In this document: positions 4,543 through 50,737 of the stretch, in pieces
Numbering within the stretch: position 1 is the stretch's first letter
Layout of the letters: each line of letters starts with the position of its first letter
Origin: an uncultured Candidatus Saccharibacteria bacterium
GTDB lineage: Bacteria > Patescibacteriota > Doudnabacteria > UBA920
Length of the DNA: 64,000 bases
Assembly: GCA_964483665.1 (NCBI GenBank)
Contig: CAZACP010000001.1
Location: 6,358-70,357 of the forward strand
Reading direction: 5' to 3'
The notes under the pieces: model-generated
Told to the model about the DNA's origin: nothing
Seen by the model: the letters and a program-made list of their open reading frames with translations, nothing else
The model's database searches: none
Translations under genes and position numbers: made by a program

Positions 4543-4881
4543 TTATTCGCGTGGCCTGCGAGGCCGGTTAGGCGGTTGATAGCGGCGATCCTTGTATGGA
4601 TCGTCTTTATGCAGCCAGCCGTGAAAGCCTTCTAACCCGTAAATTGAAGGGGGACTGACGTCTTGAGGGTACGACGGGGTTGCGGTTTCGGAAGAACCGC
4701 CGAAGAGCTCAGTTGTCTCTTCTGCGCCGGTCATGAACGGAATTCCTTGGCTTGGGTCGGGTACGAACCCTAACCCTCCAGAAAAAGGCATATTGTGGCT
4801 TGTTCGAGTTGGCGGGTTTCCTAGACCCATAAACCCTTCCATAATTTCATCATGGTTTGCGATAGTTAAACAGTGTGCCAT
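4543..4881 (-). CDS. Orphan G+C-rich small protein (Pro/Gly/Ser-rich, basic C-terminal tail)
   Basis: Only long ORF in a visibly GC-rich patch; perfect SD ggaggaaagtgATG; no family recognised. Confidence 0.45.
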   Translation of the reverse strand: MAHCLTIANHDEIMEGFMGLGNPPTRTSHNMPFSGGLGFVPDPSQGIPFMTGAEETTELFGGSSETATPSYPQDVSPPSIYGLEGFHGWLHKDDPYKDRRYQPPNRPRRPRE

Positions 4882-5175
4882 CACTTTCCTCCTCTCCGGG
4901 GAAGTATAAAAAATTACAGAGAGAGAGTCAACTATTCACAGATACACAGATAATATGCAGATTGCACAGATAAGCATATTGTCATTCCGAGCGGAGCGAG
5001 GAATCGCTTCGCGATTGTTTATTAACAAGTTTTAGTATTACCGAAAGTTAAGGGATCCTTCGACTCCTCGACAATTTTAATCTAAAAATTGTCTCGTTGC
5101 TCAGGATTACAAAACATGTTGAGATTGGTTATATTTTTACCTATTTTATACCTTAATTTTTTGATTAGAAATAAC

Positions 5176-5218
5176 AAACGCCGCGGTGTAAACCTCCAGG
5201 TTCCGCAGCGTTTTTTTG
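5176..5218. terminator. Bidirectional hairpin terminator
   Basis: aaacgccgcgg...ccgcagcgttt stem with T-runs on both sides. Confidence 0.5.
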
Positions 5219-5233
5219 TTGTTCAAGGACAAG

Positions 5234-5452
5234 TTAATCCTCATCTTCATCATCGCTTTCATCGAGAGGGCAGTCGGTGCACCGGCCGCTTCCACAACAC
5301 CCGTGAGCTTCGAGGTATTCGTTATAAAGTTTGAGAATTTTATCTATATGGTAGGTACCATCTTTTAACCTTCCTTCTGCTAAGGCTTTCTTTGCCCAAG
5401 CTTCTGCCATGAAGTGGCTACCACCGGTAATGATCATGAGCCTCCTTTTCAT
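5234..5452 (-). CDS. Small Cys-rich protein with acidic tail (HGCCGSGRCTDCPLDESDDEDED); unknown function
   Basis: Starts 9 nt after the miaA stop on the same strand, so probably co-transcribed; aaggaggctcATG SD at the second Met. Confidence 0.5.
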   Translation of the reverse strand: MKRRLMIITGGSHFMAEAWAKKALAEGRLKDGTYHIDKILKLYNEYLEAHGCCGSGRCTDCPLDESDDEDED

Positions 5453-19183: not shown

Positions 19184-19570
19184 ATGGACAAAACCCAAAA
19201 GAAAATATTGATTGTGGAAGACGACACATCTTTGCTAAATACTCTGGCCGACAAGCTTGTTTCTCAGGGTTTTTCTGTAATGAAGGCAGAGGACGGAAAA
19301 AGGGCAATAGACAGTATTCTGCATCATAAACCGGGCTTAATTCTGCTTGATTTGCTTATTCCGGAGGTAGACGGCTACCAGGTATTACAAACAGTCAGAA
19401 CTCATGGCGACCCGCACGTTTCGGCCACCCCTGTAATAGTGTTAAGTAATTTGTGGAGCGATAAAGATATATTAAAGGCTAAGGCGCTTAGGGTTAGTGA
19501 GTATTATGTTAAGGCTCATACAAATTTGGAAGACGTTTACAAAAAAATATCTGAACTAATAAGTTCATAG
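19184..19570 (+). CDS. Stand-alone response-regulator receiver domain protein
   Basis: ILIVEDD...LILLDLLIP...D...K REC signature; no output domain. Confidence 0.8.
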   Translation: MDKTQKKILIVEDDTSLLNTLADKLVSQGFSVMKAEDGKRAIDSILHHKPGLILLDLLIPEVDGYQVLQTVRTHGDPHVSATPVIVLSNLWSDKDILKAKALRVSEYYVKAHTNLEDVYKKISELISS

Positions 19571-22977: not shown

Positions 22978-23011
22978 AAACAACCTCTGTGTACACAGAG
23001 GTTGTTTTTTG
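22978..23011 (+). terminator. Rho-independent terminator after rplA
   Basis: aacaacctctgtgtacacagaggttgtt followed by tttttt. Confidence 0.85.
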
Positions 23012-23051
23012 CTATATTTAATTTGCATTTACCTATAACTAAAAACTCCTT

Positions 23052-23483: not shown

Positions 23484-23530
23484 CCGCAGATACGCAGATT
23501 AAAAACAGATCGCGTATATAAAAAATAAGA

Positions 23531-23566
23531 AAGCCGCCGTTGGTGGTTACCGCGGGCGGCTTTTTG
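23531..23566. terminator. Bidirectional terminator
   Basis: aaagccgccgttggtggttaccgcgggcggcttttt with T-runs on both strands. Confidence 0.75.
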
Positions 23567-23586
23567 CTTTTCGCGCTGGTTGGCGC

Positions 23587-23751
23587 TTATATAGAACAAA
23601 CGCTTGATGTCGACAGGGTTGGGTTTTCCTGAATGATTAGCTGAGCCTCAAGCCAGTCATTCAAATCGTCTGTGCTGGGAATCCAATGGGGGATTTTCAG
23701 ATCCACGCCTTTAAATTCCGCTAACATCATCAGATGCTTTGTATATAACAT
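23587..23751 (-). CDS. Orphan 54-aa protein with a perfect SD (tctggaggataagtATG)
   Basis: Internal ATG of the listed ORF 23587..23814; GGAGG at the ideal spacing. Confidence 0.45.
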   Translation of the reverse strand: MLYTKHLMMLAEFKGVDLKIPHWIPSTDDLNDWLEAQLIIQENPTLSTSSVCSI

Positions 23752-23965
23752 ACTTATCCTCCAGATTTGTAGTTTCACGGACACCCAAGAAATTAGGTAT
23801 CCATCAAAATACAAAAACCCGTCCCGCTAAGCGGGACGGGTTTGTAAAATGTAAGGAATTAATTACTTACATACAAAAACCTCGCCCCAGCGGGGGTAAG
23901 TAGGCTAAGAAGCAAACCTAAGGTTTTTTGTATGAAATTCATAGAAATATTTTAAACCAATTAAA

Positions 23966-24092
23966 AAATTTTGTCAACCCAGTAGAATTACATTACTATT
24001 TGTAAAAAATAATTTTCAATATTTTTAACTAATTTATTTAAGTATAAAACAATTGCGAATAACTAGGTTGTAATGTAGATCTACTGGGTCAA
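23966..24092. repeat. About 25-nt imperfect inverted repeat (tgtcaacccagtagaattacattac / gtaatgtagatctactgggtcaaaa) around a ~55-bp AT-rich spacer
   Basis: Read directly from the sequence; MITE-like or an operator palindrome. Confidence 0.7.
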
Positions 24093-24113
24093 AAGTAAAA
24101 GCAGCTCTGGGGG

Positions 24114-24416
24114 CTAGTATGGGGTCGTTTTGCCCGCGGAGCTGCTTTTTTGTTCGTTACTCGATATTTCCTCCTTGTTATGGGGCCGGTTTGGCCTCGT
24201 AGTCTTTGTCAAAAGTTGGGCCTGAGAGCTCAACTTTGCAACAATACTTTGTTTCGACGCTCTGTTTAATGTTTGGTCCCAGATTTTAAAACTGAGCGTT
24301 AGACAACTATTTCTCTGGACGCAAATTAGGCGTATTTCAGCCTTCTTGCCATCCAAAACCACTTCAATCGGGGCAGGCCTTTCATTATTGAGAGGCTGAA
24401 TAAATCGGATGGTCAT
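24114..24416 (-). CDS. Orphan 100-aa protein with a perfect SD (ccggaggacgcaaaaATG)
   Basis: Starts MTIRFIQPLNNERPAPIEVVLDGKKAEIRL; a faint AbrB/MazE-like N-terminal flavour only. Confidence 0.45.
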   Translation of the reverse strand: MTIRFIQPLNNERPAPIEVVLDGKKAEIRLICVQRNSCLTLSFKIWDQTLNRASKQSIVAKLSSQAQLLTKTTRPNRPHNKEEISSNEQKSSSAGKTTPY

Positions 24417-24457
24417 TTTTGCGTCCTCCGGTCCGCCTTTGGCGGGCCGCAAGATAC

Positions 24458-24482
24458 AAAAAAACTCCCCGGCTTTAGGGAG
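24458..24482 (-). terminator. Minus-strand hairpin terminator upstream of the orphan gene
   Basis: ctccctaaagccggggag followed by ttttttt on the minus strand. Confidence 0.5.
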
Positions 24483-24628
24483 TAAAAGGGTTTAAATTTT
24501 ATAAAATTTATTAAACCATATTTTTTGTCCCAAAGCCAAAGCCAGATGACTTCTTAGTCATCTTAGTGGTCTTGGTTGTAAGGGACAAAATGTTATTCAT
24601 ATAGCAATTTTATGGTTAAAAACTATTT

Positions 24629-24657
24629 TTGTCAAAGACGGTAAATTATAGTAATAT
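24629..24657 (+). promoter_or_regulatory. Sigma-70-type promoter for dcd (TTGTCA-17-TAATAT)
   Basis: ttgtca aagacggtaaattatag taatat, 38 nt before the dcd ATG. Confidence 0.5.
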
Positions 24658-24694
24658 TAAACAGTGCAATTAAACAATCATCAAAATTAAAAAT

Positions 24695-50243: not shown

Positions 50244-50353
50244 TGACTTTTCAATACAAATAAGGTATATTTAGGTGTTTTCTGTCTGAAGCTTGCTTTA
50301 GGTAAAAAACCGTACGATGAATTTCGTTACGAACCTATGTTGGAGGAAAAACT

Positions 50354-50737
50354 GTGACTTCAAAAAGAGTTCTAACAGCTCTTGAGTCTCAACAGGTTAG
50401 TGCAATGGCTCAAGCTATTGTTACTATTCGTTCAATCAACTTCAGCTTACTACTACAAGTAGGAACTGAATTTGACCTCATGCTTGCATCGCTGTATCCT
50501 TTTGGTATCTTGGGGGTTATGGCTGTGATGCAAAGCTCGATGTCGGGTGAAAGTCGTAAGGCTTTTTACGTGCACCTGATGTCCGGACTGCCGTATTACT
50601 ATACCAGTTTTGGCGACATCGTAAGGTGCGTATTCGGTGGAGACGAAATAGCGGCAAGGCAGGCCTTGGCAATAGGTCAGGAAATTCTGGAACTTGCCCC
50701 ACAGCATTTTCCGGAATTACGTAGGATTGGGTTGTAG
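50354..50737 (+). CDS. Orphan GC-richer protein, GTG start with perfect SD (ggaggaaaaactGTG)
   Basis: 127 aa; no family recognised. Confidence 0.4.
   Translation: MTSKRVLTALESQQVSAMAQAIVTIRSINFSLLLQVGTEFDLMLASLYPFGILGVMAVMQSSMSGESRKAFYVHLMSGLPYYYTSFGDIVRCVFGGDEIAARQALAIGQEILELAPQHFPELRRIGL

Follow-up and report, generated by a model that had tools for sequence, protein, structure and literature searches.

What purpose is served by a block of about 1.2 kb, crowded with hairpins and holding two orphan open reading frames (ORFs), that lies between a receiver gene and dcd in a genome of the candidate phyla radiation (CPR)? The locus belongs to a stretch of 64,000 nucleotides (contig CAZACP010000001.1, positions 6,358 to 70,357), hereafter the window, in which the rplA (ribosomal protein L1) region is followed by the receiver gene, the strain-variable islet described here, with both of its small ORFs on the minus strand, and dcd. 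The features that the original prediction, made from the letters of the DNA, had listed at 23484–24694 were all found where it placed them or a few bases off, including both orphan ORFs, and RNA folding of three sub-regions was above chance (z = −7.65, −6.21 and −6.80; 0 of 200 shuffles folded equally well). A simple terminator scan by itself performed at chance level (3 found against 2.9 expected), and two hairpins with large loops escaped it. The islet has three components, namely two minus-strand expression slots (A and B), a 111-bp element between them that resembles a MITE (miniature inverted-repeat transposable element), and terminators at both ends, which insulate it from the receiver gene and dcd. 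We lean towards reading the whole as a strain-variable islet in which two ribosome-mediated attenuator slots gate swappable small orphan genes, accompanied by the MITE-like element.

Two apparently paralogous expression units with predicted leader reading frames

Slots A and B share one layout. In each, a leader ORF of 27–29 codons opens with an ATG that coincides with the predicted transcription start, 6 nt past the −10 hexamer; this leader ORF lies inside a long hairpin, which is succeeded by an intrinsic terminator, a further hairpin and an ORF led by a Shine-Dalgarno (SD) sequence (Table 1). The pattern TTGACA-N16-18-TAWAAT-N6-ATG has only two sites in the 64 kb (23977..23940 and 24635..24598), compared with 0.00 expected, and in 919 kb of related loci it was found in this islet only. 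Aligned from promoter to start codon, the two units reach a score of 68 (11.8 ± 10 for shuffles), and they are apparently paralogous. The additional hairpins recorded earlier belong to the leaders of these genes, which were missed at that time.

Neither leader ORF is interrupted in any of the four sequence variants, that of the sister metagenome-assembled genome L001 among them, despite 1-nt indels and a 6-nt deletion, and the stop codon of each lies just past the antiterminator strand. The consensus structure obtained with RNAalifold consists not of the terminators but of the antiterminator helices, to which the long hairpin contributes its 3′ half and the terminator its 5′ arm. The antiterminator pairs also stay compatible where the terminator stem of L001 has changed.

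Under the mechanism proposed here, transcription from each TTGACA-17-TAAAAT promoter would start at the A of the leader ATG. A ribosome stalled early in the leader ORF would free the antiterminator strand, and RNA polymerase would read through into the gene; a ribosome at the end of the leader ORF would cover that strand, and the terminator would form. In slot B, the terminator would also form when the ribosome is absent. The predicted leader peptide A includes L-G-L-L-L-S-L-L, with six Leu in eight residues, and leader peptide B includes T-T-K-T-T-K-M-T-K-K, ten residues of Thr, Lys and a single Met. Such codon clusters are suggestive only, and scans of the leader peptides against Pfam, NCBIfam, PHROGs and PADLOC returned nothing. 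A more ambitious picture, which we regard as rather doubtful, is that of a modular system in which Leu-rich and Thr/Lys-rich leaderless leader peptides would monitor the advance of the ribosome or the supply of aminoacyl-tRNA in a CPR symbiont auxotrophic for amino acids, terminator/antiterminator pairs would gate interchangeable SD-dependent small proteins, the SD being kept for such accessory genes with internal initiation in a genome that is SD-free elsewhere, and a MITE family would target TTGACA −35 boxes, rewiring promoters.

Alternative structures of the leaders

Attenuation is a well-supported inference for slot B. In its leader, GGCUUUGGG (24528–24538) is able to pair with CCCUAAAGCC of the terminator 5′ arm and loop (24471–24480), and the duplex energy is −14.4 kcal/mol, compared with −8.2 ± 2.2 kcal/mol for 1000 dinucleotide shuffles (p ~0.008). 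The advance of a ribosome was mimicked by masking the 5′ end of the leader nucleotide by nucleotide. With 0–12 nt masked, the probability of terminator B was 1.0; it was about 0 with 18–63 nt masked and again 1.0 with at least 66 nt masked, and this was the case in all four variants. A profile of this kind (1.0/~0/1.0) occurred in 6 of 200 shuffled leaders, and an equally long OFF window in 1 of the 200. Leader B is ~87% identical to that of L001, compared with ~72% overall for the block 24133–24648, which includes ORF B.

The case for slot A is weaker. Strand 23876–23892 of leader A is able to pair with the terminator 5′ arm (23831–23845), with a duplex energy of −18.1 kcal/mol (−8.9 ± 2.2 kcal/mol for 1000 dinucleotide shuffles, p ~0.001). 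The hairpin at 23815–23843 has perfect 14-nt arms and a T tract on the minus strand, and the stem of terminator A is preserved by two-sided changes in the related sequences L081, L108 and L001. Promoter P_A is conserved in these three and in L110, and over codons 1–20 of the short ORF of leader A (sORF-A), L081 shows four differences from the window, all of them synonymous. In a leader A transcript truncated before the 3′ arm of the terminator, the antiterminator forms unless at least 63 nt are masked.

Several observations weigh against attenuation. Terminator A (−24 kcal/mol) forms at equilibrium whatever is masked, and the mask scan showed no switching; because it always wins at equilibrium, slot A needs a kinetic argument, i.e., its switching, as modeled, would have to be kinetic. 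In leader B, hairpin P1 of every one of the four variants is the better fold when read as plus-strand RNA, and two substitutions of L081 in this hairpin preserve pairing on the plus strand only, so its assignment to the minus strand is tentative. The anatomy of the islet, its synteny, the insertion polymorphisms, the pattern of conservation and the computed alternative structures are results of the analysis; transcription start sites, termination and translation of the leader ORFs are predictions. The ratios of synonymous to non-synonymous differences in the leader ORFs are mixed (4:0, 4:5, 1:5 and 4:4), and RNA structure alone would also suffice to account for the conservation of these ORFs. 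No more than 4–6 distinct, closely related sequences were available, which makes covariation weak. Furthermore, ORF B evolves at a nearly neutral ratio, with 6 synonymous and 19 non-synonymous differences from L081. Finally, some Parcubacteria have no anti-SD sequence in 16S rRNA (PMC9297842), and the 16S gene of this host lies outside the window, so the SD role of GGAGGA is putative.

Two other accounts of the leaders were considered. Each leader is a highly structured RNA enclosed by a strong promoter and a strong terminator, the leaders are better conserved than the genes downstream, and terminator A is stable enough to halt most transcripts, all of which would suit small RNA genes in their own right: trans-acting or dual-function transcripts of ~135–145 nt that carry the short ORFs only incidentally, with ORF A and ORF B having separate transcripts or almost none. 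This seems unlikely to us, given that no convincing separate promoter was seen between either terminator and its ORF, that significant antiterminator pairings and an ON-OFF-ON profile are not expected of a plain small RNA, and that ORF A, being under purifying selection (see below), must be expressed somehow. Moreover, no Rfam family reached its gathering threshold in the islet in a search with E-values up to 10; the best matches, mir-5856 (31 bits against 90) and L10_leader (27.8 against 44), are hairpin or terminator look-alikes. The second account keeps the terminator/antiterminator switch and assigns its operation not to a translating ribosome but to some protein, tRNA or small ligand. It fits the same alternative structures, and the support for translation of the leader ORFs is indirect. 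We nevertheless hold it to be quite improbable: the same Rfam search matched no riboswitch, T-box or protein-binding leader, and an ATG 6 nt after the −10 hexamer, ORFs that are open in all variants and stop codons past the antiterminator strand are the geometry of ribosome-mediated attenuation. The Phe, Thr and Leu leader families of Rfam scored at chance level against the islet (17–25 bits, with gathering scores of 50–55), and ARAGORN identified no tRNA or tmRNA genes in it.

Organization and borders of the islet

Table 1. Features of the islet and its right border; positions are those of the window.
Feature	Position	Strand	Description
Bidirectional intrinsic terminator	23522..23571 (arms 23522-23538 and 23555-23571)	both	Inverted repeat between an A run and a T run
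ORF A	23587..23751	-	Payload of slot A, an orphan protein of 54 aa; GGAGGA 6 nt before ATG (23757-23762)
Hairpin between terminator A and SD of ORF A	23779..23802	-	Predicted fold
Terminator A	23806..23843 (hairpin 23815-23843 and U tract)	-	13 pairs, 9 GC; tail TTGTATTTTG
Leader A with sORF-A	23859..23942	-	Predicted leaderless ORF (MNFIQKTLGLLLSLLTPAGARFLYVSN); spans long hairpin P1 (23865-23938)
Promoter P_A	23949..23977	-	TTGACA-17-TAAAAT; 11/12 consensus matches
MITE-like element	23978-24088 (with target-site duplications 23974..24092)	none	111 bp; terminal inverted repeats of ~20 nt and 4-bp duplications
Terminator hairpin, 3′ end of slot B	24097..24149	none	18-nt inverted repeat, 89%; T/A runs on both sides
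ORF B	24114..24416	-	100-aa orphan protein, payload of slot B; GGAGGA at 24424-24429, inside hairpin 24420-24452, 8 nt before ATG
Conserved SD-like motif, 3′ flank of slot B	24169..24176	-	AAGGAGGA; no usable start codon after the motif
Terminator B	24455..24483 (hairpin 24464-24483 and U tract)	-	Conserved in four variants
Leader B with sORF-B	24511..24600	-	Predicted leaderless ORF (MNNILSLTTKTTKMTKKSSGFGFGTKNMV); spans nested hairpin P1 (24523-24590)
Promoter P_B	24607..24635	-	TTGACA-17-TAAAAT; 11/12 consensus matches; back to back with the dcd promoter
dcd promoter	24629..24657	+	TTGTCA-17-TAATAT; outside the islet, marks its right border

The bidirectional terminator at the left end is common to the receiver gene (plus strand) and ORF A (minus strand) and is 88% identical in L001. 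At the right border, similarity to the more distant relatives L002 and L003 starts at ~24624. The ribosome-binding site of ORF B is embedded in a hairpin, as had been proposed, and this hairpin shows compensatory pairs. At the 3′ end of slot B, the sequence is different in L108, L001 and L110 and an equivalent hairpin is formed. The AAGGAGGA motif in the 3′ flank of the slot is found in five variants (window, L081, L108, L110 and L001) whatever the frame or payload, with a TAA within ~10–13 nt; read on the plus strand, it is the anti-SD-like CCTCCTT.

A shift in GC content, which had been part of the argument for a foreign block, was not found: the GC content of the islet (0.29–0.46) is within the range of its surroundings. 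Only the AT skew reverses in the islet, which is consistent with coding on the minus strand. No other copies of any islet segment were found in the 64-kb window.

The payload genes

ORF A and ORF B encode orphan proteins. Protein homology was explored by three word-indexed searches and one exhaustive profile search, and, apart from four lineage-restricted proteins, no homologs of either were found in libraries of 5.8 billion and 1.84 billion proteins. Scans of both ORFs and their variants against Pfam, NCBIfam, PHROG and PADLOC gave no match. In the library of 5.8 billion proteins, ORF A matches itself, one variant with 89% identity and nothing else. It is identical in several strains, and comparison with the L106–108 allele revealed 9 synonymous and 7 non-synonymous codon differences, which indicates that ORF A is under purifying selection. 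In L001, its position is occupied by an unrelated SD-led ORF of 57 aa.

Homologs of ORF B were detected only in L081 (62 aa, 69% identity), L108 (86 aa, 42% over 45 aa, E = 1e-8) and L001 (79 aa); beyond the four proteins of this lineage, the exhaustive profile search found no relatives among 1.84 billion representative proteins. The conserved core comprises approximately the first 62 codons (24231–24416; MTIRF...VILDG...IRL..VQRN.CLTL.F) and keeps its hydrophobic pattern in four genomes, while the tail is variable. A diversity-generating retroelement was considered for the hypervariable patch at 24210–24310 and rejected, as substitutions of all types occur there and are not adenine-specific, and no template repeat is present in the window. 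In L110, slot B holds an unrelated ORF of 91 aa between flanks that are 95–97% identical to those of the window. This protein was at first aligned as a homolog of ORF B, to which it has no detectable similarity, and its inclusion may have degraded the alignment used for structure prediction.

The AlphaFold2 (AF2) models obtained for the two proteins, a modeling step that the original prediction had proposed, are of low confidence: two helices for ORF A (pLDDT 68.3) and a four-strand beta meander for ORF B (pLDDT 58.8). Foldseek comparison with the PDB revealed no significant match for ORF A, and the best match for ORF B (E = 0.27) is unrelated. The same prediction had raised the idea that the two genes are a pair, either of small regulators or of the toxin-antitoxin kind, with an antitoxin resembling AbrB/MazE. 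The genes are small, adjacent and on one strand, and ORF B is predicted to be beta-rich. We find this hardly credible, since no AbrB/MazE family (Pfam, NCBIfam), no toxin, toxin-antitoxin or defense family and no structure was matched, and a terminator, the MITE-like element, a promoter and a leader separate the genes. The two genes do not constitute an operon pair; ~360 bp lies between them, and each has its own promoter, leader and terminator. Replacement of one is also independent of the other: sequences that differ in ORF B have the same ORF A, and in L001 ORF B is retained without ORF A. Both are probably accessory or conflict-related small proteins.

Use of Shine-Dalgarno sequences

The observation that SD usage in the islet differs from that of the surroundings was borne out. 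In the 22 nt upstream of the long ORFs of the window, GGAG or GAGG occurs in 0 of 64 cases, whereas GGAGGA precedes both ORF A and ORF B. Upstream of the 64 long ORFs, the mean anti-SD duplex energy is, at −0.30 kcal/mol, no better than in control windows (−1.19 kcal/mol); the values for ORF A and ORF B are −9.3 and −9.5 kcal/mol, respectively. In the proposed mechanism, the SD would be required because translation of ORF A and ORF B begins internally and behind structured RNA, the ordinary genes of this genome making no use of SD sequences.

Further SD-led orphan ORFs are present elsewhere in the window: two at 4543–5437 on the minus strand (67 aa, with GGAGG at 5445, and 113 aa, with GGAGGA at 4892) and one of 127 aa at 50354–50734 on the plus strand (GGAGGA at 50342). 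A Pfam scan of the three gave no match. In this genome, accessory or foreign genes may be recognizable by a strong SD. Leaderless genes in general give a weak positional signal, in that 5 of the 64 long ORFs have a −10-like hexamer 6–7 nt before the ATG. A few ordinary genes, such as those starting at 19184 and 44542, have TATAAT exactly 6 nt before the ATG and would be leaderless.

A MITE-like element at −35 boxes

The long imperfect inverted repeat of the original prediction is present, although its arms (23977–23996 and 24070–24089; 20 nt, 90% complementary) are separated by 73 nt and not by 55, and its nature had been overlooked: the repeat forms the ends of a mobile MITE-like element. The pattern of the arm has three matches in the window (0.24 expected). 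The element is non-coding, with no ORF of at least 30 aa inside, and is flanked by target-site duplications TCAA at 23974–23977 and 24089–24092. The window reads TTTTG-TCAA-(CCCAGTAG...CTACTGGG)-TCAA-AAGTAAAAGCAGC. In L108, L131 and L132, which are independent assemblies from three samples, the site is empty and has a single TCAA (TTTTG-TCAA-AAATTAGAAAACAGC; TTTTGTCAA joined to AAATTAG).

L001 has a degenerate copy at the same position as the window and a second, clean copy in the dcd promoter, flanked by CAAA on both sides, for which the window is the empty site. As seen from comparison of L001 5783–5976 with window 24590–24694, the second copy sits in the spacer of the dcd promoter, directly past the −35 box. 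There, the end of the element together with the target-site duplication gives TGGGCA at the correct 17-nt distance from the dcd −10 hexamer, and the dcd promoter of L001 is possibly a hybrid promoter. A two-arm scan of the metagenome collection revealed one further clean copy, in the unrelated CPR contig L120, which is flanked by TCAA on both sides and lies directly upstream of the TTGACA-17-TATAAT promoter of a sigma-70-like gene. The copies share only ~22 nt at each end; their cores differ and their lengths are nearly equal.

The bases duplicated at each of the three independent insertions are those with which a minus-strand TTGACA −35 hexamer begins, and because of this the promoter is left intact; in the window, the element entered precisely where the −35 box of the slot A promoter has its upstream edge. 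The copy number is one per 64 kb in the window, two per 12 kb of L001 and one in L120. No transposase partner was found with the element in the window region or in the loci of relatives examined. A scan of viral contigs for the arm gave 23 single-arm matches, none with a second arm nearby, which were therefore put down to chance, and the metagenome match L119 is an unrelated palindrome within other sequence. A plus-strand promoter reading into the element (TTGTCA-17-TACTAT) was likewise rejected, as it is not conserved in the copies of L001 or L110.

Insertion and strain variation at the rplA-dcd junction

The dcd protein places the window among Candidatus Doudnabacteria-like Patescibacteria, with L001 as the nearest genome (96% identity of dcd). 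The comparison that had been proposed earlier, adjacency of the receiver gene and dcd in other genomes, revealed that rplA is directly followed by dcd in many relatives (L004, L026, L018, L052, L007, L068 and others), while the DNA of the islet is limited to L001 (72–76% identity) and to metagenome contigs of the same species. Since rplA and dcd are adjacent in many relatives and the islet DNA is lineage-restricted, the receiver gene and the islet together represent an insertion at a variable hotspot. The suggestion of an inserted cassette or regulatory hotspot thus held up: the islet is a lineage-restricted, strain-variable accessory locus, inserted with the receiver gene at the ancestral rplA-dcd junction of a Doudnabacteria-like CPR genome.

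In L002, L003 and L005, the junction contains different, unrelated small genes. The cargo of L002 (3537–5884) and L003 (3493–5882) includes a conserved 69-aa protein, proteins of ~126 aa and 118–138 aa and a membrane protein of 223–228 aa, and that of L005 (3800–5700) comprises small ORFs resembling CxxC zinc ribbons.

Strains of the same species differ in the presence or absence of the inverted-repeat element and in exchanged payload genes. L081 is 99.9% identical to the window to the left of ~23823 and ~92% identical to the right of it, indicating mosaic strains, and L110 combines flanks like those of the window, a middle sequence like that of L001 and an unrelated payload. The promoters, leaders and terminators of the islet are 87–97% conserved, whereas the payloads change. 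Payload genes would be exchanged between strains and species via recombination within the flanks, which are conserved.

Numerous metagenome assemblies, independent of one another, break off within leader A or terminator A, at window ~23807–23915 (contig ends of L106, L113, L114, L116, L117, L118 and L125–L127). This interval appears to be a recombination breakpoint between co-occurring strains, and it coincides with the 99.9%/~92% identity boundary of L081. The intergenic region between rplA and the receiver gene differs wholly in L081, where 1646–1700 (equivalent to window 22990–23051) contains three tandem TTTTGTCA(A) boxes, in strains that are otherwise 99.9% identical. Between the degenerate MITE copy of L001 and its slot B terminator is a perfect 42-nt palindrome, attgtcttacataaatgacggccgtcatttatgtaagacaat (L001 5170–5211), which is also found in L110 and is not present in the window; it may be another small mobile palindrome.

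Such variability could also mean that the islet is what a decaying integrated mobile element has left behind, its hairpins ordinary terminators and repeat debris and its ORFs eroding or spurious. That it is lineage-restricted, strain-variable and mosaic, that its genes are orphans, that a MITE is present, that ORF B has a near-neutral ratio and variable length, and that the use of SD sequences is foreign to this genome would all fit. We judge a remnant distinctly improbable, as ORF A is under purifying selection, the regulatory parts have been kept while the payloads change, and compensatory changes occur in the terminators and in the SD hairpin. Besides, comparison of the islet with phages and plasmids gave no DNA or protein match, and no integrase, transposase or att-like features were found within or beside it.

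Significance and comparison with known systems

To our knowledge, almost nothing is known of gene regulation in CPR/Patescibacteria. If the two-slot attenuator reading is true, the islet provides concrete CPR examples of transcription attenuation and leaderless leader peptides, of selective SD use in a genome that otherwise ignores SD sequences, and of a mobile element with a preference for −35 boxes in these bacteria. If the prediction of attenuation fails, what is left is an accessory islet of the ordinary kind that contains orphan genes. The rplA-dcd junction also stands out as a hotspot of recombination and insertion where strain-specific small proteins are exchanged, and is a possible place to seek symbiont-host or phage-conflict functions.

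Type II toxin-antitoxin systems with AbrB/MazE also consist of two small neighboring genes on one strand. Unlike them, ORF A and ORF B show no similarity in sequence or fold, are not a tight co-transcribed pair and have their partners replaced independently.

The element in the islet resembles the MITEs sited at bacterial promoters, such as the Correia elements of Neisseria, which have been reviewed (PMC10969869, PMC3184786). Both are non-coding, ~100–150 bp long and bounded by terminal inverted repeats of 20–26 nt and a short target duplication; both are intergenic, adjoin or reshape promoters and show presence/absence polymorphism between strains. In contrast to the Correia type, the target-site duplication here is 4 bp (TCAA or CAAA) and not TA, all three independent insertions are at a TTGACA −35 box, the copy number is so far low, only the ends are common to the copies, no autonomous partner is known and the host is a CPR bacterium. 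A literature search for MITEs together with CPR found no relevant paper.

The trpL, leuL, thrL, pheL and hisL attenuators have the same order of parts as the two slots: a promoter, a short leader ORF, mutually exclusive antiterminator and terminator hairpins, and then the regulated gene. In these attenuators, as here, the choice between the hairpins is made by a strand with which the leader ORF overlaps, and codons are clustered in the leader peptides, in the present case in both of them. Unlike those of the trpL type, the leader ORFs of the islet are predicted to be leaderless, without an SD, and the regulated genes are single tiny orphan ORFs in an auxotrophic CPR bacterium and not biosynthetic operons.

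In mycobacterial polycysteine short ORFs, a leaderless short ORF beginning with a 5′-AUG comes first, and the progress of the ribosome on it controls the downstream gene (bioRxiv 10.1101/834739). These belong to a different phylum; the islet, known from sequence alone, has no cysteine run and has an evident pair of intrinsic terminator and antiterminator. The mycobacterial leaderless short-ORF attenuators are nevertheless the closest described analogue, and a leaderless short ORF as the first cistron, predicted in the case of the islet, is common to both.

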